From positions 224,001-288,000 of the forward strand of contig CBDBHB010000007.1 in the NCBI GenBank assembly GCA_965205505.1: 64,000 nucleotides of DNA, in the 5' to 3' direction. Position 1 is the stretch's first letter, and each line of letters begins with the position of its first letter. The translations under genes were made by a program, and so were the position numbers. Shown piece by piece: positions 7,949 through 58,158 of the stretch. The DNA is from Acidobacteriota bacterium. Lineage in GTDB: Bacteria; Acidobacteriota; UBA890; WLXD01. The notes under the pieces were generated by a model that worked only from the letters and a program-made list of their open reading frames with translations, ran no database searches and had not been told where the DNA came from.

Positions 7949-8035
7949 GTGGACCCTCGCCTGCCCCAGCGGTACGCTTCACGCGCTCACCCGCCCTCAT
8001 CCTGATAAGCGCCATGGAACCCGGCACCAAACTAG
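7949..8035 (+). repeat. Kinase promoter/leader module copy A (on intact kinase)
   Basis: GTGGAC-N18-TACGCT..cttcacgcgctcacccgccc..gcgccATGGAACCCGGCACCAAACTAG. Confidence 0.75.
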
Positions 8036-10725
8036 GCCCTTACGAGATCACCGAGCAGCTCGGTGCAGGCGGCATGGGCGAGGTGTACCTGGCGCAGGAC
8101 ACGCGCCTGGGCCGCAAGGTGGCCATCAAGGTGCTACCCGCTGAGTTCGCCTCTGACCCCGAGCGCCTAGCCCGCTTCGAGCAGGAGGCCCGTGCTGCCG
8201 CTGCGCTCAACCATCCGCACATCGCGGTCGTTCACGATATCGGCACCGAAGGCAACACCCACTTCATGGTGCAGGAGTACCTGGAGAGTGACACGCTGCG
8301 GGAGCCGCTGGAGAAGGGTGCGCTGCCGCTCAAGAAGGCGCTCGGCCTGGCTACCGAGATCGCCGAGGCGCTGGCTGCCGCTCACGCAGCCGGGATCATC
8401 CACCGGGATCTGAAACCGGAGAACATCTTCGTCACCAAGGAAGGTCACGCCAAGGTGCTGGACTTCGGCCTGGCGAAGCTGACCGAGGTGGCGGGGGCAG
8501 GCTCACCGGGCGGTGCAACGCAGTCACCCACGATAATGGGCACGGTGGCCGGCCAGGTGATGGGCACCGCTGGCTACATGGCCCCGGAGCAGGTGGAAGG
8601 TTCCGACAAGATTGACCATCGGGCCGACCTGTTCGCCTTTGGCTGCGTGCTCTACGAGATGGTCAGCGGTCGGCAGCCGTTCGCCGGCAAGAGCATGTTG
8701 GACATCCTACACAGGATCGCCGACGAGGAGCCTCAGCCGCTCGGCGACATCAACCCCGACCTGCCCGCTCAGTTGCAGTGGATGTTGAAGAAGTGCCTCG
8801 CGAAACAACCAGACAAGCGCTACCAAACGGCGGGCGAGTTGGTCATCGATTTGCAAGCGCTCCGAGCCGATGTCGAGTCGGGCACGGCATTCCTCCTGGG
8901 TGGCCAGCCGGTGGTCGCCGTGGAAACGGCTCGCGGCATCCCCTGGAAGCTGGCGGCTCCAGTCGCGATTCTACTCGTGGTCGTTGCTGCACTGCTCGGC
9001 TGGTGGGCAAGGCAACCCGAGCCCGGAAGCACCATCCGCCTGCAGCTCGACCCCCTCGTCGACACGATCAGGAGCCAGGGCGGCTCCGCAGTCGTGCTAT
9101 CGCCCGATGGACGGCACGTTGCCTACGTCGAGAATGGCCCGACGGGTGGAAGCACGCTGTACCTTCGCGCTCTCGACCAGCAGGACTGGACGACACTCGC
9201 GTCGTCGGCAGACAACCTGGATGCGCCGTACCATCCCTTCTTCTCGCCCGACGGGCAGTGGGTAGGGTTCGTCACCCCGACGGAGCTGAAAAAAGCGTCC
9301 ATAACCGGAGGCACCCCGCAGTCGATCGCGCCGGTGAACGCGAGTCGAGGTGCGGATTGGGGACCCGACAATACGATCGTCTTCACACCAAACCCCGCCA
9401 GCGGCCTGTCTCTCGTGTCTGCTGTCGAGGGTGAGCCGGAACCGCTCACCGAGCTTTCCGAGGGCGAGCGCAGCCACCGCTGGCCCCAGTTCCTACCCGG
9501 CGGAAAGGCCATGCTATTCACTTCGGCCGAGACCGAAGGCTTCGACAGGGCCAACCTCGAGGTCGTAGATCTCGAGACCGGCGAGCGCCAGGTCGTGCAC
9601 CGGGGCGGCACCTACGGCCGATACGTGCCGACGGGCCATCTGGTGTATTTAAACGCCGGAGCGTTGTTCGCGGTGCCCTTCGACCTCGATACCCTGGAGA
9701 CGACCGGCTCGCCGCTACCCGTCGTCGAGAACCTCGCCGCCGACGGTCAAGGCGGGGTCTCGTTCGACTTCTCCGAGACCGGGATGCTCGTCTATCACCT
9801 GAGGGATGGCGGCGCTTCGAACGCTTACCAACTCGTCTGGGTGGATCGTGACGGCCAAGTCGAGCCGCTGCCCTTCGAGCCGCGTCAGTCTGAGTTCTTG
9901 GCCCTCTCGCCGGATGACCAGCGCATCGCGCTCCAAATCCACGGAGATGATGGGGACTTCGACATCTGGATCTACGAGATCGAACGAGGGGGCAGCCAGG
10001 CGCTGCTGACCACGGAGGGCAACAGCGGAGGGCCCGTTTGGTCGCACGATGGAGAGTGGGTTTTCTTCGGGTCGGATCGGGGTGGCAATAGCGACATCTG
10101 GAAGCGCCGGGCTGACCGGAGTCTCGAAGCCGAGCTCGTGTTGGATACAGAGGCTGAGTTGTGGCCGTCGTCGATCTCGGCGAACGATGAAATGCTGCTG
10201 TTTGTCAGCGGGGTCCTCCCGAATTTCGACGTGGGGATACTGGCTCTCGATACAGGTGATACGGAAATGCTCGTCGATACCGCCGCCCTTGAGGAATGGC
10301 CCAGTTTCTCGCCGGACGGTCGCTTCTTCGCCTTTCATTCGGACGAGACCGGGCAATTCGAGGTGTACGTGCGGGAGGTATCGAGCGGTCGGACATTTCC
10401 GGTCTCTACGAGTACCCGTGGTGGCTTTTCCCCTCGCTGGTCGCGGGATGGAAGGGAGATTTACTACAGCTCCCCCATAAGCCCAGGCATCCTCGTTGCG
10501 GAAGTGGATTTGGAGTCGTTTTCCGCATCCGACCCTGTCGAAGTCTCGGACATCGTCATCCGTGGCTTGTCCCACTTCGATGTCACCGCCGATGGCCAGA
10601 AGTTCCTGGTGACGGTGCCCGCTGGTAGTGATGAGACTGGGGGCACGGCACCCAGCACACGACTCAACGTGGTTCTCGACTGGTTCGAGGAATTGAACCG
10701 GCTCGTGCCGACGGGCGGCTCCTGA
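8014..10725 (+). CDS. Hanks-type Ser/Thr protein kinase with TM and TolB/PD40 propeller
   Basis: [38 protein letters not shown] helix, SPDG repeats, C-terminal VVLDWFEEL. Confidence 0.95.
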
Positions 10726-13427
10726 TGATCGGCAAGACGCTCGGCCACTACGAGATCATCGCCCCGCTCGGTGCAGGCGGCATGGGCGAGGTCTACCGCG
10801 CACGCGACACGACGCTTGATCGCGAAGTCGCGATCAAGGTGCTGCCGGAGGACTTCGCCACCGACGCCGGACGTCTGGCTCGGTTCGAGCGTGAAGCCAA
10901 GCTGCTCGCCTCGCTGAACCACCCCAACATCGCCACCATCTTCGGCTTCGAGGAATCGGATGGTGTGCGCTTCATCTCCATGGAGTTGGTCGAGGGCGAC
11001 AGTCTCGCCGAGCGGATCGAAGCCTCCGGTCACATCGAGGTTGATGAGGCGCTGGAGATCGCCCGCAGGATCGCATTGGCGCTGGAAGCTGCTCACGAGG
11101 CTGGTGTCATCCATCGCGACCTGAAGCCGGCCAACGTGCAGGTCGCATCCGATGGCACCGTCAAGGTGCTCGACTTCGGGCTGGCCAAAGCCTACGAAGC
11201 GGAAGGCAGTGAACCGTCGTCCGATCTGAGCCATTCGCCGACGATGATGGCCACCACGGGCACCGGCGTGATCATGGGCACGGCTCCCTACATGAGCCCG
11301 GAGCAGGCGCGTGGTCAGCCAGTCGACAAGCGTGCCGACATATGGGCGTTTGGCTGCGTGCTGTACGAGATGCTGACGGGCGAGAGGACGTTCGATGGTA
11401 AGACCGTCAGCGACACACTGGCATCGATCCTAAAAGAGGAGCCAGACTGGGCCGCAGTGCCAGAACCCACGCCGGCGATGATCCAGCACGTGCTGCGGCG
11501 CTGCTTGGAGAAAGATCCGTCTCTACGCCTTCACGACATCGCCGATGCCCGCATCGAGATCGTCAACACCATCGCCGATCCAGACGGCGGCCTCACTCTC
11601 GTAGCTGGCTCTGGTGAGGCAACGCGGCCCTCCTGGTGGCGCTACCTCCCAACTCCCGTGGCCGTCGGCCTCGGTGTCGCGGCTGTTGCAGCCACGTTCC
11701 TTGCCGTCTCGACCTCGATGCGCCAGTTACCGATCGCGCCCGAAGCAGCAATGCGCCTGGAGGTGCGACTCACCGACGATGGTCTCTTGCCGTTAGGTGT
11801 TGTGCTATCGCCGGATGGCACACAGATCGCCTACGTACTGGGTAGTGGGATAACCGAAACCGAGCTCTACGTCCGCTCATTCGATGAGCTGGGGGGCGTT
11901 CGCCTGGTTTCTGGCTCTCCACACTCACCGTTCTTCTCACCAGACGGTCAGTGGGTCGGCTATTTCGATGGCTCTGACCTGAAGAAAGTGCCGGTCACCG
12001 GGAGCACCCCCCAGACTGTCGTTTCCTCCGACGTTGTCCCCGCCACCGGGACCTGGGGGGCTGACAACACGATCATCTTCGGCTCCATCGGCGGTGGCCT
12101 GTTCCGTGTGTCGGCCGACGGGGGAGAGCCAGAATCACTGACACGTCTCGATCAGGGGGAGAACGCGCACGTTTTCCCGCAACTGCTGCCGGACGGCAAT
12201 GCACTGCTATTCACGACGGTTGACTTGGACAACTCGATGGCCACCGAAGTGCTGGATCTGGAGACGAGAACACGACGTGTCGTGCAGCAGGGTGGACAGG
12301 GACGATACGCACCGACGCGCCATCTCGTGTATCAAGATCAGGGAACCCTGTTTGCCGTCCCGTTCGACCTGGGACAGCTGCAGGTGAAGGGTTCGGCGGT
12401 ACCCGTCGTGCAGGGGCTTGCCACCATTCTCGATTCGGAAGCCGCGGCGTTCGACTTCTCGAGTACAGGAACACTGGCCTATCTGGGTGGGGCCGCCGGC
12501 TCGCAGACGTATCCCGTCGTATGGGTCGACCGGCAGGGCAACACGACACCGCTGTAGGACGAGCCTGGCGTCTACAGTACTCTTCGGTTGTCTCCGGACG
12601 GCACACGACTGGCCGTGCAGGCCTCGCGGAACGACAACGAAGATGTGTGGATCTATGACCTGGAACGGGGTGCACCGACCCGGCTGACGTCCGATGCAGC
12701 CCGCGACACGAATCCTGTCTGGTCGCCAGACGGGCAGTTTCTCGCATTCTCCTCGGACCGCGACGGCCCGCCGAACATGTATCGGACTCGTGCCGACGGC
12801 TCAGGCACCGTCGCGCGGCTGACAGAGAGCGACCGTGCACAGTTCCCAGAGTCATGGTCTGCGGACGGCGGCTTGCTGGCCTACGCTGAAGCAGGCCTAG
12901 GGACCAACTACGACTTGTGGGTGTTGCCGCTTGAGGGGGATGCGGAACCTCGAGTCATCGCCAACAGCGCTGCCTTAGATACCTGGTTGGCATTCTCGCC
13001 GAATGGTCGCTGGATCGCATACGCATCCTTCGAATCAGGAAGGCCTGAAGTCTATGTCCAGTCCTTTCCTCCTGGGCCTGGGAGGCACCAAGTCTCCATT
13101 GGCGGCGGCAGCCAACCCAGGTGGTCAGGCGATGGGCGTGAGCTTTTCTACCGAACCTACACAGGGATCATGGTGGTTGCTGTGGAGACGGAAGGTGATT
13201 CCTTTGGCTACGGTACAACCGAGCAACTCTTCGAGGGGAGTTTCCGTGGTGGGGTATACGGAATGATCGACACCGGGTTCGTTTACCCGGACTACGACGT
13301 TACCGTCGACGGCCAGCGTTTCGTGATGTTCCCTGGCAGGAGTCAACGCCAGAACGACAGCGACCATGTGACGTTGATCACCAACTGGTTCGACGAGCTG
13401 AAGCGGCTCGTGCCGGCGGACCCGTAG
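10725..13427 (+). pseudogene. Second Ser/Thr kinase-PD40 gene with one in-frame TAG (12555-12557)
   Basis: TGATG coupling with kinase 1; intact kinase domain; reading continues in frame after PL*DEPGVY to LITNWFDELKRLVP. Confidence 0.85.
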
Positions 13428-15356: not shown

Positions 15357-15410
15357 ACACCTCACCATGCCGCCCGCGCCGAGCGGCTCAATAATGCCGT
15401 AGTGGCCTAG
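15357..15410 (-). pseudogene. Kinase N-terminal remnant, codons ~7-23 (LGHYGIIEPLGAGGM-EV), starting at CTAG
   Basis: Reverse strand ctaggccactacggcattattgagccgctcggcgcgggcggcatgg matches kinase starts at 10725 and 49913. Confidence 0.8.
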
Positions 15411-15480
15411 CAGGCCGTGGTGAAAGTGCGGTGGGTCTGGCGACAGGGGGTTGCGCGCGTATGCTGCGTCGTTCCTCGAT
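15407..15480. mobile_element. Half 1 of a split MITE (CTAG + 38-bp terminal repeat)
   Basis: CTAG-CAGGCCGTGGTGAAAGTGCGGTGGGTCTGGCGACAGGG is identical to 16074-16115. Confidence 0.7.
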
Positions 15481-15993
15481 GCCGATCGCAGCAAGGAGCG
15501 TCCTGCAGACGGGACTGTAGTGATCCACGGACTCCATGTACGACGTGCCGCCGGGCAGCATCAGCGTGTGGCCTCGATAGGTCATCTCGTTGCGCTTGGC
15601 ATGGCCGCCGAAATCATCGTGGTTGTCGAGCACCAGCACCCGTGCCCCGCGGCCTGCCGAGGTCAGGAAGAAATAGGCCGCCGACAGCCCGCTCAGCCCC
15701 CCTCCGACCACCACCATGTCGTAGCTCTCGCCCGTGTCGGCGACATCGGTCCAGGTGGTGCCATCGCGGAGTGCATGGGCGACCTCGAACGAACCGGGGT
15801 GACTGCCGCGCATTCCAGTCAGGGCCGGTGGATAGTATTCCTGCGCCCGGGGCGCATAGGGCGCGCCCTCGCGCGCCGACAGCCAGCCAGGTGCGATGAG
15901 CGACCCGCCGATTGCAACCCCCACGCCATTGACGAGGTCGCGTCGGGTGATGTCCCGGTGCATCCCGAGATTACGATCCCCATTCTTGGACAT
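15476..15993 (-). pseudogene. 5' fragment of spermidine dehydrogenase-like paralog
   Basis: Near-identical to 29655-30172 (Tat leader, QEYYPPALTGMRGSH, GGGLSG); truncated at ATCGA next to the MITE half. Confidence 0.9.
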
Positions 15994-16055
15994 AGCCCCT
16001 CCGATTCTCTAACGCGGGAAACTGCGTGGAACGCCGGCTTTCTCGAGTCCGACCC

Positions 16056-16077
16056 ATGGAACCCGGTACTCGACTAG
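16056..16077 (+). repeat. Kinase leader copy B (MEPGTRL) interrupted at CTAG by MITE
   Basis: ATGGAACCCGGTACTCGACTAG directly followed by the MITE terminal repeat. Confidence 0.8.
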
Positions 16078-16174
16078 CAGGCCGTGGTGAAAGTGCGGTG
16101 GGTCTGGCGACAGGGTCTTGCGAAGTGGAGGCAAGGAGAGAGGAGGAGGCGATGGTAACCTCATCGTGGACGAT
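16074..16174. mobile_element. Half 2 of split MITE
   Basis: CTAG + 38-bp terminal repeat + core gcaagg..gaggaggcgatgg..catcgtggacgat. Confidence 0.7.
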
Positions 16175-16411: not shown

Positions 16412-16501
16412 CATGTGCGCGGCGCGTGCCAGTTCGGCATCGGCACTAGGGCCGAAGGTTTCAGCAGCCCGCCCGCCGGCGACCGCGGCTCACATCGAGA
16501 T

Positions 16502-22100: not shown

Positions 22101-22223
22101 CTTGATCCGATCGTTGCCACGGTGGCAAGTGTCGTGCTCCTGGCCGTATGCCTGTGTGCGAGCGCGGTGCCCGCATGGCGAGCCTCATCGGTGAGTCCCC
22201 TCGAGGCCTTCCGCACCGAGTAG
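22101..22223 (+). pseudogene. ADOP/MacB-like permease C-terminal remnant
   Basis: DPIVATVASVVLLAVCLCASAVPAWRASSVSPLEAFRTE* resembles YLPAHRATRVDPVRALRED* of the intact ADOP at 53554. Confidence 0.75.
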
Positions 22224-23564
22224 GCCCAAGTCCGGAAGCCGCGCACCCGGGGAGCCTCCCACCGGCCTCCCTCGCTCTGGTGCGCTCGTGACACCGCCTG
22301 GCCAGACAATGGCGTCGTCGTCGATCGTCAGCTGACCCGTCTTCGGGTCAACGCTGCCCACCGAGACGAAATCGACGGTCTCGCCGTCTGCCTTGTATCC
22401 ATGGCTGTTGAAGATCTGGATCGGCAAGTTGGCGCGATCGTTGGTACCGGGGACGAGCGACACGTGTCCGGTCGCTCCAGCAAAGCTCATCTGGCGTAGA
22501 TACGGCATGAGGTTATGGCCATTCACATCGACACCAGCGGCCTTGACGTCGCGGATCGCGTAGCCCACCGCGAGCATGTGGTCGTAGCTCAACGCTCCAT
22601 AGGAGAACGCCTTCGACGAGGGATCGACGGTTTTGCCGAGGCGTTTCTCGAGTGCCGTCTTGAACCGTGAGAGCGTCGGCGATTCGATGAGCCGGTTCAT
22701 GGGAGCGAAGTAGCCCAGGCTTCCGAGAACGGCTTCGGGCGCCTCGTCTGCCGAGATCATCTCCGCGGCGTAGAAAGAGTAGCCCGGTTGGTTCATCCCG
22801 AGCTCATGCAGCGCACGAAACATCGTCACGGTGTCCGGCGTAGGGCTGGTGTCGACGATGTGCCTGATGCCGGCCTGCCGCACGCTCGTCACATGCGCTT
22901 TGATCGTTGCGTACGGCGTATCGCGCGGGTAGCCGTATTCTTGGGCGATGCGAATGCCTTCACGCTGCGTAGCCTGGTGGACGACGTTCTTGGCCCCCAG
23001 TCCCCAGGCATCGGTCGTATGAAAGTACGCAATCTCCTGGACGCCAAAGTGCGCCGCGACATCGATGAGGTAGCGGTCATATTGCTCGCTCGGAGTGACC
23101 ACGCGCACGAAGTAGGGGAACTCTTCTGCCGACGACAGCACCGACGCGTTGGCGCCGCACGAGATGACCGGGATCTGGTATTTCTCTCCAACCTTGGCGA
23201 TCTCGACCGCGGGGCCGCTGCAATCCGCACCGGTGAGAACGAGGATTCCCTTCCTCATGAGCGTCTCCGCCATGAGAGCTGCGTTCTCCGGCCAGCAGTG
23301 ATAGTCGATCGTGTTCTCGTCGGTCATCCGTACGCGGTCGGCGCCCAGCATGCCTGACGCGTTGATCTCCTGGATGGCGAGCTGTGCGCCGTGCCGCTCG
23401 AAGTCTCCCCAGTCGGCATAGCGGCCGTCCCGGTAGTGGTAGGTGTACATGCCGCCGAGATCGTAGACTTCGGCTGCGCCGCTGGAATCGTGGGCTTCGA
23501 CCGCACCCATGGAAGGGACGAGCGCTGTTACTAGCAGCAAGCCTAGTTTTGTGCCGGGTTCCAT
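22185..23564 (-). CDS. Periplasmic binding protein type I / ANF-receptor (Venus flytrap) domain protein, N-terminus from kinase leader
   Basis: LTGADCSG, IPVISCGANASVLS..FPYFVR, SYDHML, FAGATGHV, IVWPGG; starts MEPGTKLG. Confidence 0.8.
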   Translation of the reverse strand: MEPGTKLGLLLVTALVPSMGAVEAHDSSGAAEVYDLGGMYTYHYRDGRYADWGDFERHGAQLAIQEINASGMLGADRVRMTDENTIDYHCWPENAALMAETLMRKGILVLTGADCSGPAVEIAKVGEKYQIPVISCGANASVLSSAEEFPYFVRVVTPSEQYDRYLIDVAAHFGVQEIAYFHTTDAWGLGAKNVVHQATQREGIRIAQEYGYPRDTPYATIKAHVTSVRQAGIRHIVDTSPTPDTVTMFRALHELGMNQPGYSFYAAEMISADEAPEAVLGSLGYFAPMNRLIESPTLSRFKTALEKRLGKTVDPSSKAFSYGALSYDHMLAVGYAIRDVKAAGVDVNGHNLMPYLRQMSFAGATGHVSLVPGTNDRANLPIQIFNSHGYKADGETVDFVSVGSVDPKTGQLTIDDDAIVWPGGVTSAPERGRPVGGSPGARLPDLGLLGAEGLEGTHR

Positions 23565-23614
23565 GGCGCGATCACACGGAGGTAGGTGAGAGGATGAAGC
23601 CTATCGCCAGAGTG
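23543..23614 (-). repeat. Kinase promoter/leader module copy C (fused to VFT gene)
   Basis: ctctggcgaTAGGCTtcatcctctcacc..gcgccATGGAACCCGGCACAAAACTAG. Confidence 0.85.
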
Positions 23615-29457: not shown

Positions 29458-29517
29458 CGCTACCAAAGAGGGTTGGGTGAGTGGCTGAAACCTATCGCCA
29501 GAGCACATGAGATCCAG
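29458..29517 (-). repeat. Kinase promoter module copy H (promoter and UTR only, no ATG)
   Basis: CTGGAT-N17-TAGGTT: ctggatctcatgtgctctggcgataggtttcagccactcaccc. Confidence 0.8.
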
Positions 29518-39554: not shown

Positions 39555-41378
39555 TCACCACCCCAACACATAATCACTCTTCGCCGGACTGACCCCTCCG
39601 AACATCACTCCGCTTTCCGGGTCGATCATCAACATCTTCACGGCGCCCGCGCCTGATGTTGCCATCCGATAGGGTTGTTGCAGCGGTACCACCTCCACTC
39701 TGTGGCCCCGCCGGCCCAGCTCCTCGCTGATGACTTCTCCCAACACCGACGGCATGGTGAGCATGCCGCGCATCCGACCGGGATACATCGACGCCGCGAA
39801 GGCGCTGCTGGTCACGGTGGCGGCCTCGACCGCCTGCTGCACGTTCATGCCGAAGTGCACGACCGCGAGAAACGCTTGCAGCATGGCTTGCGGCTGGTTG
39901 TCTCCGCCGGGCGTGTTCCACGCCAGATACGGCTTCCCGTCCTTCAGTGCGAGCGCCGGGTTGACGGTGTGTCTGGTGCGTTTACCCGGTACGAGCTCGT
40001 TCACGTCCCCCTCGTCCAGCGAGTAGTAGGGCATGCGGTTGTTCAGAACGATGCCGGTCCCATCCACGAACATGCCACTGCCGAACGTGCCGTTCACGCT
40101 GTGTGTGACTGAGACGAGGTTGCCGAACCGGTCTGCGATGGAGAACGACGAGGTCTCGCCACTTTCTTCCTGAGCCGCTGCGGGCCGCTCTACGGGCAGT
40201 GATTCGGCTTGGTACTCTGCCGCTGCACCGTCGACCACTGCGCGTTCCCGTCGTGGGTCGCCGGCAGGCGCCACCGTCATGGCGCGGTCCATCCGGATAA
40301 GCTCGCGGCGCTTTGCCGCATAGTTCTTGGAGAGCAGCTCGTCGGTCGGCACGTCGGCAAACTTGGGATCGGCTACGTAGCGGTTACGGTCGGCGAACGC
40401 CAACTTCATCGCCTCCGTAACGACGTGGATGTAGTCCACCGAGTTGTGTCCCATCTCGACCAGATCGAACTCCTCGAGGATGTTGAGCGCGATGAGCATG
40501 ACGATCCCCTGCGAGTTGGGCGCGCTCTGGTATACGTCGAGTCCGGCGTAAGTCGTCGATATGGGAGACGTCTCTTCGGCGTCGTAGGCCGCGAGGTCCT
40601 CGTACCGCAAGAGACCTCCCTCCCGCTCGTAGACGCTCCCGATGCGCCTGGCAAGGTCGCCGCGATAGAGCACGTCGATGCCGCCGCGGGAAATCGCCTC
40701 CATAGACCGAGCGAGGTCACTTTGCACGTACACGTCACCGGCACCAAGCGGGTGCCCTTGCGGCATGAGCACCAAGAGTGAAGACGGGTACGGAGAGATC
40801 TTCTCGACTGCCCGCGCGTGGTACCCGGACGCCCAGAAATCCACCGGGTGGCCTTCGCGCGCAGCCCGAATGGCGGGTGCGAGAACCTTGGCGTAATTCA
40901 TCGTTCCGTATTCGCGGAGCGCCAAGTCGAATCCGCCTGCCGCGCCAGGAACGTCGGTCGCCAGAGGGCCCGCGTCCGGGATCTCGCCGAGCTCCGTGTA
41001 GTACTCACGCGTTGCCAAAGCCGGTGCGGGCCCGGTGCCGTTGATGAACACCACTCGGTCCTCGGCGCCGAGGTAGGCAAGTATGAACCCGTCTCCGCCG
41101 ATGCCGGCCTGATGCTGCTCGACCACCGTGGTCATGTAGAACACCGCGGCGGCTGCATCGAACGCGTTGCCCCCCGCCCGCAGGATCTCCATTCCAGCGA
41201 TCGTCTCGAGTGGATGTTCCGCCGCCACCATTCCAAAGGTGCCCATTACCACCGGGCGCCAGAACGGCCTCTCGTCCGGTTGTTGTGCGAACAACCCGCT
41301 GACGTCGAGGGTGGTGGTCGACAGCAACATGGCCAACACCACAAGAATCTTGAGTACTAGTCGGGTACCGGGTTGCAT
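39555..41378 (-). CDS. Gamma-glutamyltransferase family protein, N-terminus from kinase leader
   Basis: GGNAFDAA, GIGGDGF, APNSQG, ETSSFS (Thr nucleophile), PGKR, TPGGDNQPQ; starts MQPGTRL. Confidence 0.92.
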   Translation of the reverse strand: MQPGTRLVLKILVVLAMLLSTTTLDVSGLFAQQPDERPFWRPVVMGTFGMVAAEHPLETIAGMEILRAGGNAFDAAAAVFYMTTVVEQHQAGIGGDGFILAYLGAEDRVVFINGTGPAPALATREYYTELGEIPDAGPLATDVPGAAGGFDLALREYGTMNYAKVLAPAIRAAREGHPVDFWASGYHARAVEKISPYPSSLLVLMPQGHPLGAGDVYVQSDLARSMEAISRGGIDVLYRGDLARRIGSVYEREGGLLRYEDLAAYDAEETSPISTTYAGLDVYQSAPNSQGIVMLIALNILEEFDLVEMGHNSVDYIHVVTEAMKLAFADRNRYVADPKFADVPTDELLSKNYAAKRRELIRMDRAMTVAPAGDPRRERAVVDGAAAEYQAESLPVERPAAAQEESGETSSFSIADRFGNLVSVTHSVNGTFGSGMFVDGTGIVLNNRMPYYSLDEGDVNELVPGKRTRHTVNPALALKDGKPYLAWNTPGGDNQPQAMLQAFLAVVHFGMNVQQAVEAATVTSSAFAASMYPGRMRGMLTMPSVLGEVISEELGRRGHRVEVVPLQQPYRMATSGAGAVKMLMIDPESGVMFGGVSPAKSDYVLGW

Positions 41379-41387
41379 GGTGCTGCC
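41357..41387 (-). repeat. Kinase leader copy D (fused to GGT)
   Basis: ggcagcaccATGCAACCCGGTACCCGACTAG. Confidence 0.75.
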
Positions 41388-41528
41388 CACAGTCGGATCA
41401 CCTCGAGCGTTGCTTGGTCTGCTGGATTCCGCAAGGATACCGCCGAAGCGAAAGCAGTCGAATACAAGCCAGTTTGCACTTTCCTACGAGGATCAGCTTG
41501 CTGGCTGAAAGAGACGCGGCCGACGCCA

Positions 41529-41600
41529 CTAGTCGAGTACCGGGTTCCTTGGCGCTGCCAGAGCAGGGTGAGTGAGCGCCTGAAACCTATCGCCAGAGCG
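41529..41600 (-). repeat. Kinase promoter/leader module copy E (orphan, ATG>AAG)
   Basis: cgctctggcgaTAGGTTtcaggcgctcactcaccc..ggcagcgccAAGGAACCCGGTACTCGACTAG. Confidence 0.85.
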
Positions 41601-41632
41601 GGCGAGGGACTGACCCGATCGCAACAGCTTCG

Positions 41633-47322: not shown

Positions 47323-49913
47323 TCAGCCCTCGCCCCGAGCGACATCCATGATCCAGATGTCGCCAAGGGCCTCCTCCCACGTGAAATAGAGAAAGTTGCC
47401 GTCGGTGGCGAGTGCCTCGCTTCCCGGTGCGCCGCGGCGACCAGCCAGGTCGGTGACTTGGCGTGCGGCACCGTCAACCACATCGATCTCCCACACGTTA
47501 CCGGCGCGGTGATCGACGCCGAGGGCATAGATGTGGGTGCCGTCCGGGGACCAATCGTGGTAGCCGAGGCCAGGCGGGCTGAGGGCCTCAGGGGAGCCTC
47601 CCTGGACAGGTACACGCCAGATCCGCACCCCATCACCTCGGTTCGAACGAAAGGCGATCCAATGACCGTCTGGCGACCACGTGGCCGAGCTGTCACCCGC
47701 CTCGTCGAACGTCATGCGTAGCGGCGTGCCGCCCTCGCGCGGCGCCACGTAGATGTCGTTGTTGAGGTCAGGACCTACGGCGCGGAAAGCCAACCGGCGC
47801 CCGTCTGGCGACCAGGCCGGTACGAACTGCTCGCCGACACCTGACAGCGGCACCGGCAGCGCCGCACCCCCGGCCGTCGGCATGATTCGGAGGGAACGGG
47901 CGCCATCGCGATACGCGTAGAGGGCGATCTCGGAACCATCCGGCGAGAACCGAGGAGACCAGTCGGGTTGGAGATCGGCGGTCAACTGCCGCATCTCGCC
48001 ACCCGTCGCTGGCAGCATCCAGATGTCCTTGTTGCCAGAGCGATCGGTGCTGACTGCCAAGTGCTCCGCGTCGGGAGATACGTCGACGAACTCGACCCAA
48101 GCCTGATCGAACGTGAGCTGCTCGGCGTCGGCCCACGTCGACATGCGGCTCGACAATATCGGCACGCGCCATAGGTTCGCCACGAACCGTCCTTTCGAGT
48201 AAGCAAGCTGCGACCGGTCAGGTGAGAATACCGCCTGCCGCATGCCAACACCGGCCGTGACCTGGACGGGCTCGCCATCGGGGCGCCCTGGCGCGTCCAG
48301 GCGCTGGCACCACATGTCCATGCTGGAGCCACGGTTCACCAGGTAACACAGGATGCTATCGCTCACCCACGTCGGGCTCAGATGGTGTAGCTCATCGGAT
48401 GTGATTCCCCAGCTCTCACGGTCAGAGAGCCGCAGGATGCGAATCTGCGAAGTCTCGTACTCGCGCTGCCACCCGGCGACGTAGGCAACGTGCGACCCGT
48501 CCGGCGACCAAACCGGATCGTAGCCGGGGACCTTACCCGGAAGGTCGACGCGCATCGTCGAACCTGACTCGAGGTTCATGACCTCGGCGTGACTGTCCGC
48601 CCAGGAGCGCACCACGTACAACAACTGCGTGCCGTCGCCCGACCACTGAGGGGGGCTCATGGGGATGTAGCGGACATCGGTTTGGACGCCCGGTGTCGAC
48701 GATCTTGCGAGGCAATCCTGCCAAGGCGTCGACTGCCCGTCCGGTGAATAGCTGGGATATCGATCTTCGCCGGCGTTGATCCGCGGTGCGGGTTGAGCGC
48801 ACCACTGCCGGGTTGGATGATCCATATGTCCCAATCACCGTCCTGATTGGACTGGTATGCGAGCGTTCGCCCGTCCGGCGACCAAGCCGGATAGTCCTCC
48901 ACGCCGGTTGCGCTGGTGACCTGCACCGGATTGACCAGCCTGAGTGTTGTGGGCTCCGAAGGTGCACCGAGCCATCCCCTGACCAGCCAGACGAGGCCGA
49001 CCCCGACAGCCACGAAGGCGAACAGAGCCGCCGTCGCGACTGCCACCGGGAAGACCCACTTTCGCGCCAGGCTGACCTCGATCCCGAGCTTCCCGAGGGC
49101 CTGCAGCAACTCCTCAGTGGATTGAAATCGGGCCTCGGGGTCCTTCTCGAGCGTTCGTGCGATCACTTGTCCGAGATGCGGCGACAGTCGCCCGTTGAGT
49201 CGCTCTGCAGAGACCGGCGTATGGTGGAGGATTGCGTCGAACACCGCCGCCGTCGTGTTGCCGTCGAACGGCCTCGTTCCGGTGGCCATCTCGTACCGCG
49301 TCACCCCGAGCGAGAACACGTCGCTTCGCGCATCAGTAGGCTCGCCCAGCAACTGCTCAGGCGACATATAGGGGACGGTGCCTATGGTCTGACCTGCTTG
49401 TGTCAGCTCCGTAGCTGCCTGCGTATCCTCCGAGGATTCTTCGAATAGCTTGGCGATGCCAAAATCCAGCACCTTCAACCGACCGTCGTCGGTCATCATG
49501 ACGTTGGCCGGCTTGATATCACGGTGAATCACTCCGTGGCGATGTGCAGCGTCGATTGCTTCCACCAGCGGAACCGCGAGCTCGAGCCACTCATCGGGTC
49601 GCAGACCGCCCTCCGGGATCAGTTCGTTGAGCGTCTTGCCCTGCACCAGTTGCATCGTGATGAAGGGCAGCGCGGCGCTGTCCTCGACCGAGTAAATGGT
49701 CACGATGCCTGGGTGATCGAGTGAAGCTAGGGTGCGAGCTTCCCGCTTGAAGCGCGCTATGCGCTCCGGATCGCCCGAAATGGCCCCGGGAAGAACCTTG
49801 ATCGCAACGTCACGGTCCAGGGTGGTATCCCGTGCTCGGTAGACCTCCCCCATACCGCCCGCACCGAGCGGCTTAATGATCTCGAAATGACCTAATCGGG
49901 TGCCGGGTTCCAT
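47323..49913 (-). pseudogene. Third Ser/Thr kinase-TolB/PD40 gene, frameshifted around 48780-48800
   Basis: MEPGTRLGHFEII, HRDIKPAN, DFG, TM helix; PD40 repeats continue in another frame (ORF 47323-48834). Confidence 0.85.
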
Positions 49914-49986
49914 GGCGCTGCCGTAGTAGGGCGGGGGAGCGCCTGAAGCCTATCGCCAGAGCGCACGAGATCCAACGTCAGGAGCC
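49892..49986 (-). repeat. Kinase promoter/leader module copy F (on kinase 3)
   Basis: ggctcctgacgTTGGAT(49975-49970)-N17-TAGGCT(49952-49947)tcaggcgctccccc..ggcagcgccATGGAACCCGGCACCCGATTAG. Confidence 0.85.
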
Positions 49987-50129
49987 GGGAGAGCCCCCTG
50001 GACCCGGACTCCAAGCCAGGCAACCACCCGTGTGCACCCGGAGTGCGCGCAGATGAGGGCGGACGGTCGCTCGCCAGCGCTCGCGTACTTGTGGACCTTC
50101 CGAGCGCATCGCCAGCACGCGGGCGCAAG

Positions 50130-50519: not shown

Positions 50520-50596
50520 TTGACAGGACATGTCCTATGTAGTCAACTACTATCATCTATGTAGTCAACTACTCTGCTGCCCACGTAGTCCACTTC
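50520..50596 (+). promoter_or_regulatory. Putative PadR operator array
   Basis: TTGACA at 50520; GTAGTCAACTAC at 50539 and 50561; degenerate GTAGTCCACTTC at 50585. Confidence 0.7.
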
Positions 50597-50611
50597 CGAC
50601 TGGATGCGACC

Positions 50612-50935
50612 GTGGCACGAATCACCTTCTCGACAGCGATCGTCCTGCAGGCGATTGCTACAGGTTACCGGTACGGCTTCGACATCATGGCAGCCACCGG
50701 ACTGCCCAGCGGCACCGTCTATCCGGCACTGCGCCGACTCGACCGTGACGGGTATCTAACGTCGAACTGGGAGGATCGCGAGGAGGCTCTCGAGGAGCAG
50801 CGCCCACCGCGGCGCTACTACGAGGTCGCGGAGGCGGGGCACCTCAGGCTGTCTGAGGCCCGCGGGCGCTTTCACGGTCTCGAACGGGTCGTACCGGAAC
50901 CGGCCCACGGCCCCGGGCCACGCGGAGCCGTCTAG
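50612..50935 (+). CDS. PadR family transcriptional regulator
   Basis: YGFDIM, LPSGTVYPALRRL, RPPRRYY. Confidence 0.92.
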   Translation: MARITFSTAIVLQAIATGYRYGFDIMAATGLPSGTVYPALRRLDRDGYLTSNWEDREEALEEQRPPRRYYEVAEAGHLRLSEARGRFHGLERVVPEPAHGPGPRGAV

Positions 50936-53554
50936 TTGGCGCCGGACCCACTGCCGCTGCCGATCCGAGCACTAGTGCGCCTGGCGGCTCGGCTCGTGCC
51001 GCGCGCGGTTCGCGCGGAGTTCGTCGACGAATGGAGCGGCGAATTGCACCACCAGCGTGGCGTCGCCGGACCCTCCACTCGTGCCCAACTCACCACCTTG
51101 CGCCGCTCCCTCGGCTGTGTGACCGACGCAGTTTGGATCCGCACCCATGGATGGAGCCCTGAGATGCTGCTGCAAGATCTTCGCTTCGCGCTTCGAACGC
51201 ACATGAAACGACCTGGATTCGCAGCGCTCGCTGTGATCACCCTGGCAGTCGGGATCAGCGCCAACACGGCGCTGTTCAGCGTCGTCAACGCGCTTCTGCT
51301 TGAACCGCTGCCCTATTCTGAGCCCGACCGGCTGCTACGTCTGTACGGCACGAATTCGGCTCGTGGGCTCACACATTCGAACATGAACCCGAACGATCTT
51401 CTCGACCTGCGCGAGCATTCCGAAACGATCGCGGCAGTGTCCTACTACGGCGGCTTCTCCGGGACGATGCAGGTTGACGGTGAGCCGATCCGAGTTATTG
51501 GCAGTACCGTGCACTCGAGTTTCTTCGAACTCTTCGACGTGCAGCCCGCGCTCGGACGATTCTTCACCGAGGAAGAGAACATCGAGGGCAACGGCACCGT
51601 GGTCGTGCTCAGCTACGCGAGCTGGCAGGGGCTATTCGGTGGTGATCCCGACATCGTCGGACGGCGTCTGAATTTCGACGAGCCGCACACAGTAATCGGC
51701 GTGGCCCCCGCCGACTTTGGCGATCCCTTCGGACCACGCGACATGTGGGCGCCGTGGGCCATCGCCCCAGAGAATCGGCACGGCCACTTCATGCGCGGCG
51801 TCGCCCGCATGGGTCCGGGCGTAACGCTGGAACGCGCGCAGGCGGAAATCGACGCCATCTACGCGGGGATCGCCGAGGAACACGACAAGCCGACGCGCGG
51901 CATCGCCGCGGTGCCGCTGCAGAACTCGATCGTGCAGGATACCCGTCCGTTGCTGATGCTGCTGTTCGGTGCGGTCGGCTTCTTGTTACTGATCGTGTGT
52001 GCCAACGTCGCCTGCCTCATGCTGGCCCGCGCGATAAACCGCCGGCAGGAGGTCGCGGTACGCATGGCGCTGGGCGCCGGTCGTGGCCGTCTCGTCCGTC
52101 AACTGGTCAGCGAGAGCCTGCTGCTGGCGACAGCCGCCGGCGCAGTCGGATTGGCGATGGCTCGCGCCCTCGTCGGATTCGTCGAGGCCTCGGCAACCTC
52201 CGAGCTGCCACAGGTGTTCAACGTCGGGCTCGACGCGCGAGTCGTCGGCTTCTGCCTGCTCACTACGCTTGGCGCTGGGCTACTGTTTGGCGTCGCTCCA
52301 GCGTTGCATGGCACCCGCGCCGACCTAGCGAACAGCCTGCGAGACCGCAGCACGGAAACAGGCGCCGGACGACGGCGTGGCCTGCGAGGCGCGCTGGTGA
52401 TCATGGAGGTAGCGCTGTCGCTGATGCTGCTCGTCGGCGCTGGCCTGATGCTCCGCAGCCTGGGTAACCTGATGTCGGTCGATCCTGGCTTCGACCCTCG
52501 CGGCGTGCTGACCTTCCGGATCTCCGTACCGGCCACCGAGTATCCGGAGACGGTGACCGTGCCAGTCTTCTACGAGCAGTTCATCGAACGGCTGGAGAGC
52601 CTGCCGGGTGTCGCCGCCGCGGGTGCGACGAACCGTCTGCCATTCAGCGGCTCCTTCTCCTGCGATATGTTCATGCTGGAGGGCTGGCCAGCACCCGAGG
52701 CGGGTCGCTGGGAGTGCGCCGAGGAGCGTGTGATCGCCGGCGACTACTTCCGCGTCATGGGCATCGACATAATCGACGGCCGAAGCCTAACGCCCGAAGA
52801 CGGCGCCGATGCGCAGAATGTGGTGCTCGTGAGCCAGACCATGGCAGATCGTTACATGCCGAACCGCCCCCTCGGCCGGGGCTTCACCTGGGGCAAGATC
52901 GACGACGACACTGTCTATCGGCGCGTGGTCGGTGTGATCGAGGACGTCAAGCACGTAGACTTCGCTAGCGACTCTATGACCGAAGTGTACATGCCGCACC
53001 GGCAGTATCCGTACTACCGCACGATGTTCATCGTGGTGCGCGGCGGCGACGCGACGGCAATGGTCGCGCCGGTGCGGGGTGCGCTCCGCGAGCACGACCC
53101 CAACATCCCGATCTACCAGGTTGCAGCGCTCTCGGATCTGGTCGACGCCAGCTTTTCCAAGGCTCGCACTGGCGCGCAGGTGCTGGCCGGTTTCGCGACG
53201 CTTGCGCTGGTGTTGGCCTGCGTGGGGTTGTACGGCGTGCTCGCGTACATGGTGTCGCAGCGGAAGCACGAATTCGGCATCCGCATGGCGCTCGGCGCCC
53301 GCGGCAAGGACGTGGTGTCGATGGTGCTCCGGCAAGCCGGGACCATGGTCAGCGTCGGCGTGGGGCTAGGTCTGCTCGGGGCATGGGCTCTCTCGGGAGC
53401 ACTCGGTAGCGTGCTCTTTGGCGTGGAATCGAACGATCCGGAGACCTACGCCTTCATCTCCCTCCTGCTGTTTGCTGTGGCGGGCGCGGCGGGCTACCTG
53501 CCGGCCCACCGGGCGACCCGCGTCGATCCGGTTCGTGCATTGCGCGAGGATTAG
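50936..53554 (+). CDS. ADOP family duplicated ABC/MacB-like permease
   Basis: LQDLRFALR, GISANTALFS, LLIVCANVA, RMALGAGR twice, RATRVDPV.ALR; no adjacent ATPase. Confidence 0.93.
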   Translation: MAPDPLPLPIRALVRLAARLVPRAVRAEFVDEWSGELHHQRGVAGPSTRAQLTTLRRSLGCVTDAVWIRTHGWSPEMLLQDLRFALRTHMKRPGFAALAVITLAVGISANTALFSVVNALLLEPLPYSEPDRLLRLYGTNSARGLTHSNMNPNDLLDLREHSETIAAVSYYGGFSGTMQVDGEPIRVIGSTVHSSFFELFDVQPALGRFFTEEENIEGNGTVVVLSYASWQGLFGGDPDIVGRRLNFDEPHTVIGVAPADFGDPFGPRDMWAPWAIAPENRHGHFMRGVARMGPGVTLERAQAEIDAIYAGIAEEHDKPTRGIAAVPLQNSIVQDTRPLLMLLFGAVGFLLLIVCANVACLMLARAINRRQEVAVRMALGAGRGRLVRQLVSESLLLATAAGAVGLAMARALVGFVEASATSELPQVFNVGLDARVVGFCLLTTLGAGLLFGVAPALHGTRADLANSLRDRSTETGAGRRRGLRGALVIMEVALSLMLLVGAGLMLRSLGNLMSVDPGFDPRGVLTFRISVPATEYPETVTVPVFYEQFIERLESLPGVAAAGATNRLPFSGSFSCDMFMLEGWPAPEAGRWECAEERVIAGDYFRVMGIDIIDGRSLTPEDGADAQNVVLVSQTMADRYMPNRPLGRGFTWGKIDDDTVYRRVVGVIEDVKHVDFASDSMTEVYMPHRQYPYYRTMFIVVRGGDATAMVAPVRGALREHDPNIPIYQVAALSDLVDASFSKARTGAQVLAGFATLALVLACVGLYGVLAYMVSQRKHEFGIRMALGARGKDVVSMVLRQAGTMVSVGVGLGLLGAWALSGALGSVLFGVESNDPETYAFISLLLFAVAGAAGYLPAHRATRVDPVRALRED

Positions 53555-56250: not shown

Positions 56251-56427
56251 GATCGAAGAGTACTTTGCGAACGACCCATGACACAGTGCCCTGCGACGGA
56301 TATCTGGCCAACCGGCTGGGCGGCATCTAGATGAGATGAGAAGGCCAACCTCCTGAACGCAGTAGCCTGACGGCTCTGCAAACGTTTCTTCAAACGTAAC
56401 GGGCTCGAAGCCCAAGGAGGTTGGCCG

Positions 56428-57470
56428 ATGACAAGTGTAACGATTGGACTGGACGTAAGCGACCGGTACAGCCGTATGTGCGTGCTCGACAGTAAGGGCA
56501 GGGTGATGGAGGAAGGGCGGGTGAGGACGAGCCCGGAGGGGCTGGCGAGGCGGTTCGGGTGCGAGGAGCCCGCTCGAGTAGTGCTGGAGGTTGGAACGCA
56601 CTCGCCGTGGATGAGTGAGCAGTTGAAGCAACTGGGTCATGAGGTGCTGGTGGCTAACCCGAGGCGGCTGAAGCTGATCTATGGCGAGCACGGACCGACC
56701 GGTTGGATGCCGAGCACCTGGCACGAGTGGGCAGAATGGACCCAAAGCTGCTTAAGACGGTGCAGCATCGAGGCAGACAAGCGCGAGCGGATCTAGCCGT
56801 GATTCGGAGCCGAGATGCTCTGGTAAAGAGCCGCACGCAGTTGGTGAGCCATGTGCGTGGTGCGGTCAAGTCGGCCGGTTGTCGTATTCCCAGGTGCTCG
56901 ACGCCGGCGTTCGCGCGCACCGCGCCAGAGCACATACCGGAGCGGCTCAAGGGAGCGCTCGAGCCGGTGCTTGAAACGATCGCCATGCTGACGGGCAACA
57001 TCCAGCAATACGAGCGTCAGATCGTGCAGCTGTGCCAGGGGCGATACCCGGAGACACAGCAGCTCCAGCAAGTGGCCGGGGTCGGAGCTCTGACCGCACT
57101 GGCGTATGTGCTGACGCTCGAGGAGCCGGAACGGTTCAATACCTCCAGAGCCGTGGGCCCGTACCTGGGACTGAGACCGAAGAAACGGCAGTCGGGGGAC
57201 AAGGACCCTGCGCTACGAATAACCAAGGCGGGCGACAAAATGCTCCGACGCCTGTTGGTGGGCTCGGCGCATTACATCCTGGGCCCCTTCGGGCCCGATA
57301 CTGAGCTCAGACGCTGGGGGCTCAAGCTGGCCGGACGCGGTGGTCCTCATGGCAACAAAAAGGCAGCAGTTGCTGTCGCCCGTAAGCTCGCCGTTGTGCT
57401 GCACCGACTGTGGCTGAGTGGAGACGAGTACGAACCGTTGCGCGCACCTGTAGAGGTTTCAGCAGCATGA
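56428..57470 (+). pseudogene. IS110 DEDD recombinase/transposase, frameshifted near 56690
   Basis: IGLDVS, VVLEVG, TDRLDA across the shift, GVG, YLGL.P...QSG, AVARKLA. Confidence 0.9.
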
Positions 57471-57499
57471 ACTAACTCGCAACCAGGAGGTCGGTAGGG

Positions 57500-57700
57500 C
57501 GACGCGACCCAACGGTTATCGATCTGACCGCCCGGTCCGGGCGACTGCGAAGGTCACTACGAGCTTCGAGCTCGGCAGCTAGATTGCAGCGCCTCGAATC
57601 GGGACGGACCCCAGAATGCACCGGACGACCTGAATCCTCGTCCACCAGAGTGCGAATAGGAGCATGGCGTGCAGATCGATTCTTCGCTGGCCACCACATT
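57500..57700 (+). ncRNA. Predicted bridge/seek RNA of the IS1111 element
   Basis: Stem CTGCGA/TTGCAG enclosing an internal loop AGGTCACTAC / GGCAGCTAGA capped by GAGCT-TCG-AGCTC; loop strands match the flanking target. Ends approximate. Confidence 0.7.
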
Positions 57701-57766
57701 GCCCTTGACCGAACTAGGCCTTCTCATAGAAGTGGCCTGAGTCAGAGGTTCGTTGCATATTGCTGG

Positions 57767-57866
57767 GACGAGATGGGGGCAAGCTCAAGGCGCGGAGAGG
57801 AAGGCGATGCAGTGGGTATCGTCGACGAGGCGCAACGCCGATATCGCCCGCAACTGCCCATCTGTC
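57767..57866 (+). repeat. Degenerate MITE-like palindromic repeat
   Basis: Core caaggcgc..gaggaaggcgat..atcgtcgacgag..gcaacgccg resembles the 15407/16074 MITE core; imperfect IR gacgagatggg/cccatctgtc. Confidence 0.55.
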
Positions 57867-57873
57867 CGGAGGA

Positions 57874-57972
57874 TGGCGGCGAAATCGGCCCGTCTGCGGC
57901 GTTGCTCCTCCTCGAAGATGGGCAAACATCGTCTCGTCGTCGCGCCTGGCATCCGGACCCATTTCGCCACCA
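57874..57972 (-). repeat. MITE-like palindromic repeat, inverted copy
   Basis: IR tggcggcgaaatcggcc / gacccatttcgccacca; reverse core ccaggcgcgacgacgagacgatg..catcttcgaggaggagcaacgccgcag. Confidence 0.6.
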
Positions 57973-58063
57973 CGATACGCAACGATCATCTGTTACAGGC
58001 CACTAGTTCGGCCGACGATGCACCACTGCCATGTTCTCTGAGAAGGCGAAGGGACTCCTCGAC

Positions 58064-58158
58064 CTAGTCGGGTACCGGGTTCCATGGCGCTCCCCGAAGG
58101 GTGTCGGTTAGCGCGTGAAGCCTCCAGGCACAGGAAACGAGATCCAACATCAGGAGCC
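58064..58158 (-). repeat. Kinase promoter/leader module copy G (orphan)
   Basis: ggctcctgatgTTGGAT-N17-GAGGCTtcacgcgct..gcgccATGGAACCCGGTACCCGACTAG. Confidence 0.85.

Follow-up and report, generated by a model that had tools for sequence, protein, structure and literature searches.

A 64,000-nt stretch of the genome of an uncultured Acidobacteriota bacterium (the window: positions 224001-288000 of contig C7 of the 9-contig, 5.98-Mb, 64% G+C assembly G000; coordinates below are those of the window) carries eight whole or partial copies of a recurrent module: a promoter-like block, a short C-rich leader, and the first codons of a Hanks-type Ser/Thr kinase gene, with a CTAG in codons 7-8. Two of the eight stand in front of kinase genes; elsewhere only a stub is left. 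These stubs are probably promoter-bearing relics of deleted kinase genes, some of them reused as promoters by their neighbors, a matter of gene decay rather than of gene shuffling at the CTAG.

As proposed here, the module would be what opens each gene of a much-expanded kinase family peculiar to this genus (PD40-type Hanks Ser/Thr kinases): a native sigma-70-like promoter, a short leader, and the initial codons. The family would be large and old, and in the course of being lost in a genome rich in miniature inverted-repeat transposable elements (MITEs) and insertion sequence (IS) elements. Kinase bodies would have been lost by deletion, sometimes begun by insertion of a MITE at the CTAG, or alternatively would have been parted from their front ends by rearrangement, with the useless coding remainder worn down by further small deletions. 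The promoter-proximal part would be preferentially retained while it drives the next co-directional gene. Such retention would explain why breakpoints crowd around the promoter, leader, and initial ~100 nt, why junctions usually fall just upstream of gene starts, and why a few stubs would have become the translated N-terminus of a downstream protein.

The kinase module and its copies

Seven matches to the 22-nt core of the module (ATGGAACCCGGYACYMRACTAG, allowing up to 3 mismatches) occur in the window, at 8014 and 16056 on the plus strand and at 23564, 41378, 41550, 49913, and 58085 on the minus strand; 100 dinucleotide-preserving shuffles of the window yielded none. A 243-nt profile made from 12 genomic copies (ATG at position 112, CTAG at 130-133) and searched with nhmmer recovered an eighth copy, without the ATG part, at 29516 to 29458 on the minus strand (E=2.6e-6). 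An earlier, sequence-only reading of this DNA had listed the same eight, had described the 29458 copy as lacking its ATG part (the profile match ends at position 109), and had placed two copies in front of kinases. The copies and the two kinase genes are:

7946..8035, plus strand: module copy 1, intact, with -35, -10, leader, ATG at 8014, and CTAG at 8032-8035 (profile positions 13-242, E=2.5e-62)
8014..10725, plus strand: 903-aa Hanks-type Ser/Thr kinase with C-terminal PD40 repeats (Pkinase 4.8e-49, PD40 1.1e-23), the native cargo of the module
16056..16077, plus strand: 22-nt start fragment, from ATG to CTAG, without promoter or leader, cut by a MITE (MITE-2, below) at the CTAG
23541..23614, minus strand: module copy 3, with -10, leader, and 8 codons and no recognizable -35 (profile positions 62-135)
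29458..29516, minus strand: promoter and leader only, stopping 2 nt short of the ATG position (profile positions 51-109)
41357..41392, minus strand: incomplete module, holding ~14 nt from the 3′ end of the leader and then ATGCAACCCGGTACCCGACTAG, in frame with a gamma-glutamyltranspeptidase (GGT) gene
41529..41610, minus strand: module copy 5, with -10, leader, and 22-mer, reading AAG instead of ATG and stopping at the CTAG (profile positions 52-133)
48657..49913, minus strand: 418-aa kinase open reading frame (ORF) (Pkinase 9.4e-48, in the frame 48660-49949)
49892..49988, minus strand: module copy 6, complete, in front of the kinase gene (profile positions 37-238, E=3.9e-43)
58061..58150, minus strand: module copy 7, with promoter, leader, and 22-mer, stopping at or just past the CTAG (profile positions 47-136)

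Alignment of the flanks of the window copies shows a common upstream promoter-like block and a C-rich leader. An information profile of 58 copies has no conservation 5′ of profile position ~44 and rises abruptly at a CCGT (positions 47-50). The -35 hexamer, TTGGAT or GTGGAC, occupies positions 50-55 and is separated by a 17-nt spacer from a -10 hexamer, TAGGCT, at positions 73-78, in which T73, A74, and T78 are the most informative letters; a 13-nt block around the -10 (GCGATAGGCTTCA) is nearly invariant across copies. The leader ends in GCGCC, followed by the ATG. With two hexamers 17 nt apart and a conserved T, A, and final T in the -10, the module looks like a sigma-70-type promoter and is presumed to act as one. 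A listing of sequencing runs for 7800-10800 of the window, around module copy 1, included no RNA run. The consensus given in the sequence-only reading stood genome-wide for the -35, spacer, -10, C-rich leader, and GCGCC-ATG; its leading element, GGCTCCTGA, is found only in the copies at 49913 and 58085 and falls outside the family consensus.

Two further candidates in this region were rejected. A sigma-54 reading of the -35 region would require a GG-N10-GC spacing that, judged by eye, suits only one of the two sequence variants. A hairpin just 5′ of the ATG (GGCGCT...AGCGCC) gave no consensus structure in RNAalifold (46 leaders) and a minimum free energy z-score of -0.27. An Rfam scan of the window returned no family at gathering score.

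Both genes at intact modules (8014-10725 and 48660-49949) are Hanks-type Ser/Thr kinases with PD40 by Pfam. The PD40 part of the 49913 kinase (503 aa) lies in another frame, at 47326-48834, so that this gene is frameshifted or misassembled; its match (47326-49913) in G004, the closest relative (93-98% nucleotide identity in genes), is contiguous at 88%. A second kinase gene, at 10725-13427, is apparently also split between frames, into a 610-aa kinase ORF and a 279-aa PD40 ORF. Both may be frameshifted pseudogenes or assembly errors.

Two window copies, at 41550 and 58085, lead into no ORF and are orphans, as the sequence-only reading had stated. The 29458 copy can be counted with them: it faces the 3′ end of a convergent UPF0014 gene and is divergent from an FAD-oxidoreductase gene. 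Between the copies at 41378 and 41550 lies a 151-nt stretch (41379-41529), unique in G000, whose last ~14 nt are the leader remnant of the 41378 copy. A 59-nt piece of it (41407-41465) matches an unrelated G004 intergenic site at 92%, which does not explain the tandem pair.

Genome-wide, G000 has 44 matches to the 22-mer (up to 3 mismatches) and 105 nhmmer hits to the profile at E<1. Copies that include promoter or leader positions at E<1e-3 number 64, of which 8 are in the window; a complete kinase catalytic domain comes after just 6 of the 64, in four cases within an ORF of 827-903 aa. Four other genomes of the same genus have 77, 19, 19, and 7 matches to the 22-nt core (up to 3 mismatches), and 36 other relatives have 0 or 1 each, the same as a reversed-pattern control. 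When one genome per species was scanned for exact matches, the core turned up in two Acidobacteriota records of metagenome-assembled genomes (MAGs) and once in an actinobacterial (Cryobacterium) genome, the latter probably a chance match in a G+C-rich genome. The distribution of the module is limited to a single genus of uncultured Acidobacteriota.

Nearest-neighbor identity of the modules has a median of 87% (58 copies, up to 87 nt), the all-pairs median is 74%, and the best pair over 87 nt is 95% identical, so that there is no sign of a recent burst of copying; copies of an IS110 element (below), by comparison, are closer to one another. Front ends are in excess over the rest of the gene: in a tblastn search with the 903-aa kinase, amino acids 13-35 are covered by ~53 hits and the catalytic core by ~30. 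Among hits of at least 55% identity, depth falls from 24 at the N-terminus to 4-7 across the core and 3-4 across the PD40 part. No excess of C-terminal fragments matches it.

Homologous loci, breakpoints, and the CTAG

Comparison with same-genus genomes allowed the history of some stubs to be read. At the 58085 locus, G004 has a module followed by an intact 895-aa open frame, identified as kinase by its start only, between syntenic flanks; in G000 the sequence from about +22 to about 50 nt past the stop codon is replaced by 56 unique nt, a MITE (MITE-1, below), and an IS110 element. By this comparison, stub 58085 is a deletion relic. Two further loci show erosion. At a GSDH gene, both G004 copies keep the stub to +14 plus a ~90-nt spacer, and a ~104-nt deletion in G000 leaves it ending at +2. 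At an ADH gene, the G000 stub is 61 nt shorter than that of G004, with its upstream flank on a different G004 contig; the gene is 98% identical between the two genomes and the module 81%. The converse is found at a DUF1800 gene, where G004 retains only the 3′ part of the stub and has lost the promoter part.

Other stubs are shared. A beta-lactamase-family gene has the same stub, ending at profile position 136, in G000, G004, and G001; in G002 and G003 it has a different upstream neighbor and no module. The stub at an aldehyde dehydrogenase gene is found in four species, with frameshifts, and is decaying, since the -10 is lost in G000 and G004. In G004 this stub also contains a 173-bp MITE (ends CAGGGTGCTG..., flanks CTAG/CTAA, a CTA duplication) not found at the locus in G000, G002, or G003; this looks like a recent insertion within an old kinase stub. 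A promoter-plus-leader copy at a cytochrome c gene and a promoter-only copy at a sulfatase-TPR gene are both contiguous in G004. The nine loci with a usable comparison thus comprise one deletion, two erosions, one partial loss in the relative, four shared stubs, and one ambiguous case (a binding protein, below). At none of the nine was a module gained at an otherwise intact empty site. At two more loci the comparison had no counterpart to use: for a Rieske gene, relatives have only paralogs without the module, and an SSF gene (L097) is not at the corresponding G004 site.

Breakpoints, defined as the end of homology in an all-against-all blastn of 66 copies (the 64 above and two window copies holding only the 22-mer) and numbered from the A of the ATG, were assigned to the 58 copies that lose homology before +300. 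They are scattered: 7 lie at -27 to -8, 7 at -2 to +10, one at +18, 10 at +22 to +31, 25 at +33 to +102, and 8 at +142 to +297. Not all are independent, as two M24 peptidase loci and three loci with a lipoprotein-like ORF are duplicated stub-plus-gene units, which puts the tally of independent events a little under 58.

This distribution bears on the mechanism put forward in the sequence-only reading, in which CTAG-directed recombination (IS5-like or site-specific) repeatedly exchanges the ORF behind a common promoter and start. That reading had homology ending at the CTAG or one base beyond. This is exact for 16056, 41378, and 41550, and nearly so for 58085 (at the CTAG or up to ~3 nt past it), but at 23564 homology ends 2 nt past it, at GGC/TTG. 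Only one further copy in the genome, C8:710957, breaks exactly at the CTAG (+22), making 4 of 58. An even spread over -27 to +102 would give ~3.6 breakpoints per 10-nt window, against the 10 seen at +22 to +31: a modest excess at or just past the CTAG. Five of these ten are in the window, which is why the pattern was visible there. CTAG is also the rarest permutation of the four bases in G000 (5,853 sites versus 19,712 expected from base composition), and two MITE families insert at it. These points would suit CTAG-directed exchange, but 48 of the 58 breakpoints lie elsewhere, within a range (-27 to +297) in which the junctions share no fixed crossover site. Among the CTAG-near cases, moreover, 16056 and C8:710957 are MITE-2 insertions, 58085 is explained as a deletion relic, and the 23564 junction is probably at a native start codon.

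A Pfam scan of the 199 stop-to-stop frames of at least 130 aa in the window found no tyrosine or serine recombinase domain, and the sole mobile-element protein among them is an IS110-family transposase (56371-57467). In contigs from four metagenome runs, belonging to four studies, the junctions at 23564, 41378, and 41550 were bridged unchanged in all four and that at 29458 in three; no alternative forms were seen in these contigs, which can miss rare variants. One joint of 23568 to 41566, with 9 letters between, was present in all four runs and is most simply another copy of the module that matches both places. CTAG-directed swapping is largely refuted by the scattered breakpoints, an outcome that the sequence-only reading had itself named as refuting it, and we regard it as very improbable. 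The small excess at CTAG fits the two MITE families that insert there; the site appears as one fragile point among many, not the engine of change.

The sequence-only reading had noted that IS5-like elements target CTAG; that CTAG is a MITE target in this genome is borne out by the flanks of both families. The elements concerned, with the displaced kinase fragment, are:

15357..15411, minus strand: counterpart of the 16056 fragment from the kinase start that MITE-2 divided, reading CTAG and then GCCACTACGG... (profile positions 129-184)
16074..16173, plus strand: truncated end of MITE-2, beginning CTAGCAGGCCGTGG
56327..57739, plus strand: IS110-family insertion sequence (Transposase_20 3.6e-17), abutting the tip of MITE-1
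57731..58007, plus strand: MITE-1, 277 bp, with terminal inverted repeats starting AGTGGCCTGTAACAG and flanks CT and AG, 56 nt from stub 58085

Full-length copies of MITE-1 number 19 and have inverted ends of 30 nt. On the left, 11 of the 19 are flanked by CT and 6 of the other 8 by an IS110 end; on the right, 14 are flanked by AG. Flanks reading CT...AG identify the target as CTAG. CTAG also forms the left flank of MITE-2 in 60 of 65 genomic copies matching the whole 93-nt query. MITE-1 thus has the inverted repeats, copy number, and CTAG flanks of the CTAG-inserting MITEs of the IS5 superfamily, and MITE-2 the CTAG flank in those 60 copies. The abundance of MITE-2 is very high, with 398 BLAST hits to a 1.4-kb query that includes it. 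Its copies in the window are truncated, and the complete element extends beyond the 93-nt query.

One kinase start in the window was split by such an insertion. The 16056 fragment runs directly into MITE-2, as the sequence-only reading had described, and the next kinase codons are found 660 nt away, inverted (15411 to 15357), adjoining a second MITE-2 end at 15407-15478. Since both halves of the start are in the window, each next to a MITE-2 end, a MITE must have inserted at codons 7-8, and a later inversion, also involving a duplicated FAD-oxidoreductase fragment, parted the halves. Some three copies of the FAD-oxidoreductase gene, whole or partial, are represented at 15476-16058, 16173-16470, and 29537-31663 of the window and at C7:296300-296878; one is broken and inverted, with MITE-2 ends at its joints. 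With its promoter-only module divergent from the paralogous FAD-oxidoreductase gene, the 29458 locus could be one remnant of an ancestral gene pair, and the 16056 locus the complementary one.

The IS110 element has 28 near-full-length genomic copies, 94.6-99.8% identical. Of the 19 full-length MITE-1 copies, 9 have it directly against their tip, in the place of the flanking CT (6 at one end and 3 at the other), which suggests that it targets the end of MITE-1. Some IS110 relatives are known to target repeats. Insertion of the IS110 element at the kinase CTAG of 58085 can be ruled out, as it abuts the tip of MITE-1, and the stub is 56 nt from the MITE.

Downstream genes and competing explanations

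Two stubs in the window continue in frame into unrelated genes, as the sequence-only reading had proposed:

22185..23564, minus strand: 459-aa periplasmic binding protein, with N-terminus MEPGTKLG plus signal peptide (ANF_receptor 5e-38, Peripla_BP_6 5.7e-27)
39555..41378, minus strand: GGT, starting MQPGTRL plus signal peptide (G_glu_transpept 6.9e-131)

Neither gene is present in G004, where a gene that is sulfatase-like by sequence takes the place of the GGT gene downstream of HupE. The window from 22001 to 42000 is a mosaic relative to G004, its segments matching at least 6 contigs or distant places, and is evidently a plastic region. For the binding protein, joined in frame at GGC/TTG, the question of whether such a start is native has a divided answer. 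The G002 ortholog (88% identity) has a module-derived start, MTPSTKLG, and a leader. That of G003 (86%) does not, and has the same upstream aminotransferase gene as G000 and no kinase; its start region has a degenerate promoter-like stretch, an AAGGAG, and a TTG. As this TTG corresponds to the codon after GGC in G000, the 23564 junction, 2 nt past the CTAG, is probably at the native TTG start codon. With the fusion kept in frame in a second species, at least this one is evolutionarily stable, and translation of the fused N-termini may be presumed.

A single promoter, leader, and start in front of many unrelated genes, as the sequence-only reading described, is also what is found beyond the window. 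Of 45 loci there with a forward ORF of at least 100 aa, 22 have a Pfam-bearing ORF on the same strand that starts within ~135 nt of the junction. The families are unrelated and include sulfatase, cupin, cytochrome c, GSDH, beta-lactamase, Rieske, Aldedh, SSF, DUF1800, DAO, 2-Hacid_dh, and ectoine synthase, in addition to the binding protein and GGT in the window. Coding downstream of the 58 truncated copies, assigned by GC3 phase, is co-directional in 30, opposite in 12, and unclear in 16, a bias toward co-directional genes. Of 54 stubs, 23 preserve the 13-nt -10 block GCGATAGGCTTCA without a change, more often when the downstream gene is co-directional (16 of 29) than otherwise (7 of 25; one-sided Mann-Whitney p=0.018), consistent with selection for retention of the promoter.

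Three paralogous ORFs (C9:1410213, C9:1136115, and C8:1078888) begin with ~28 codons of kinase sequence that lead into a lipoprotein-like signal sequence, reading ...GAGGM.EVYRAR/S..RCAALLLA.LLAPSC. The internal Met codon of the kinase could be their real start.

Several observations weigh against interpretation of the stubs as relics kept for their promoters. Breakpoint density is ~0.35 per nt from -27 to +100 and ~0.0015 per nt past +300; erosion and selection account for this pile-up by inference, and a directional mechanism could also produce it. The ADH stub is 87% identical to non-orthologous G004 copies, versus 81% to its positional counterpart, a hint of conversion or swapping. At L096, L097, and L098, and at 29458 and 41550 in the window, synteny of G000 with G004 is lost at a module or beside one, which obscures the ancestral state. 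For GGT and its native N-terminus, no ortholog above 39% identity was found in the 10 family genomes searched. The strand assignments depend on a crude rule, correct on 7 of 7 window genes checked. Finally, the -10 block is perfect in 4 of the 12 stubs with an opposite-strand gene downstream, which is unexpected for neutral relics; gene conversion among copies, or an unseen function, may maintain it in orphans.

One explanation that would turn several of these points to account is a duplicative "mobile promoter," with the module, from -80 to a variable 3′ end, being copied upstream of genes and the stubs representing insertions. This could occur by one-sided homologous invasion and illegitimate joining, or by conversion from promoter-only copies. 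It would fit the abrupt beginning of conservation at profile position ~47 with a variable 3′ end, the excess of front ends in tblastn depth, the position of junctions just before gene starts, the affinity of the ADH stub for copies elsewhere, and the G003 binding-protein gene, which has the same upstream neighbor and a degenerate promoter-like stretch with no kinase; it also agrees with a published concept (PMC3575422). It is unlikely all the same, given that none of the nine comparable loci shows a gain at an empty site, that no near-identical copies mark a recent spread, and that the module ends have neither a target-site duplication nor a terminal structure. Another is that ectopic homologous recombination among 60-80 dispersed modules is the main force, so that stubs are mostly redistributed, not newly made: crossovers or conversions within the ~150-240-nt module would reshuffle the DNA downstream while keeping the core uniform. 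The five synteny breaks, the 23568-41566 joint in four runs (itself most simply another module copy), the uniformity of the -10 block even in orphan stubs, and the divergence of the ADH module relative to its gene can all be read in this way. Crossovers within the module keep it whole, however, and cannot make stubs that end in the kinase coding part, and the deletion and erosion cases would be left without an explanation. As the main force it is quite improbable; recombination or gene conversion between the scattered modules is probably at work as well, adding to the decay of kinase genes as an explanation and not replacing it. Some real duplication may also have contributed to old events.

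The conservation of GCGATAGGCTTCA beyond what a generic -10 needs could reflect such homogenization by gene conversion or a site for a dedicated factor. In the latter case, the -10 block and -35 would be recognized by a particular sigma factor or regulator, and dozens of unrelated, mostly secreted or catabolic genes would have been wired into a kinase-type regulon by the keeping, converting, or copying of stubs, with active copying alongside decay; we think this rather doubtful.

Relation to known systems

Putative mobile promoters have been described as similar promoter DNA in front of non-homologous genes within one genome, with the mechanism left open (Nijveen, Matus-Garcia, and van Passel 2012, PMC3575422). 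The present family resembles them in having similar upstream DNA before non-homologous genes, no attached transposase, and some copies that extend into the ORF, although the filters used in that study removed promoters extending into ORFs. Its identity (median 87%) exceeds the threshold applied there, at least 80% over at least 50 nt (measured there over -150 to -50 and here over up to 87 nt of the module), and the downstream genes are non-paralogous, apart from an M24 peptidase found twice and the lipoprotein-like ORF found three times. It differs in that the source can be identified, as the 5′ end of a kinase paralog family; in its very large size, with 64 copies here and 77 core 22-mer matches in one relative; and in that the comparisons made here point to relics of deleted genes rather than to movement. 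Mobility itself, which the name implies and PMC3575422 does not demonstrate, was not seen, with no gain at the 9 compared loci. In the literature, the phrase "putative mobile promoter" was found only in PMC3575422, with no search aimed at the present family.

Among the work cited in PMC3575422, promoter capture by rearrangement in E. coli citrate use (Blount et al.) and at Lactococcus ldh (Bongers et al.) is alike in that a gene is brought under a foreign promoter. As they are presented there, those are single adaptive events in experiments, whereas here there are dozens of junctions of one promoter family, mostly old and some decaying. The same paper names the Correia, ERIC, and REPIN elements as dispersed repeats that carry promoters. 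The module is like them in being a dispersed repeat able to supply promoters to its neighbors, but they are transposon-like with defined ends, while it has one abrupt end (the -35 side) and one variable end and contains kinase coding sequence. It is also distinct from, and no part of, the CTAG MITEs of the IS5 superfamily, having neither inverted repeats nor a target-site duplication.

In shufflons, invertible promoters, and mycoplasma surface-antigen loci, one promoter and start can serve alternative coding sequences, joined to it within the first codons, through site-specific recombination. The module, in contrast, has no recombinase in the window, no fixed crossover site, and no alternative junctions in the contigs of the four metagenome runs.

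Expanded families of Ser/Thr kinase and other paralogs have been described in an acidobacterial genome rich in mobile elements, the kinase paralogs being generally less than 50% identical (Challacombe et al. 2011, PMC3174227). Relative to that general figure, the 5′ modules examined here are more alike, at 74% (all pairs) to 87% (nearest neighbor). A term search of the main text of that paper found no occurrence of "promoter" or "upstream."

If the interpretation as kinase relics is correct, this is an unusually large and clear bacterial case of promoter reuse, in which the origin of a "mobile promoter" family is visible as the front end of decaying kinase paralogs. It would also mean that a repeat family with one abrupt and one ragged end can arise by deletion and selection, with no need for transposition. 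Annotation of these MAGs calls for caution with short MEPGT... ORFs and with extended N-termini of secreted proteins, as both are often kinase relics. Should the promoters prove to be co-regulated, the genus would constitute a natural experiment in regulon rewiring.

Apart from the module, and unrelated to it, the window has a PadR-family regulator gene followed by a MacB_PCD/FtsX permease gene (50543-53551), a pairing typical of Acidobacteria.

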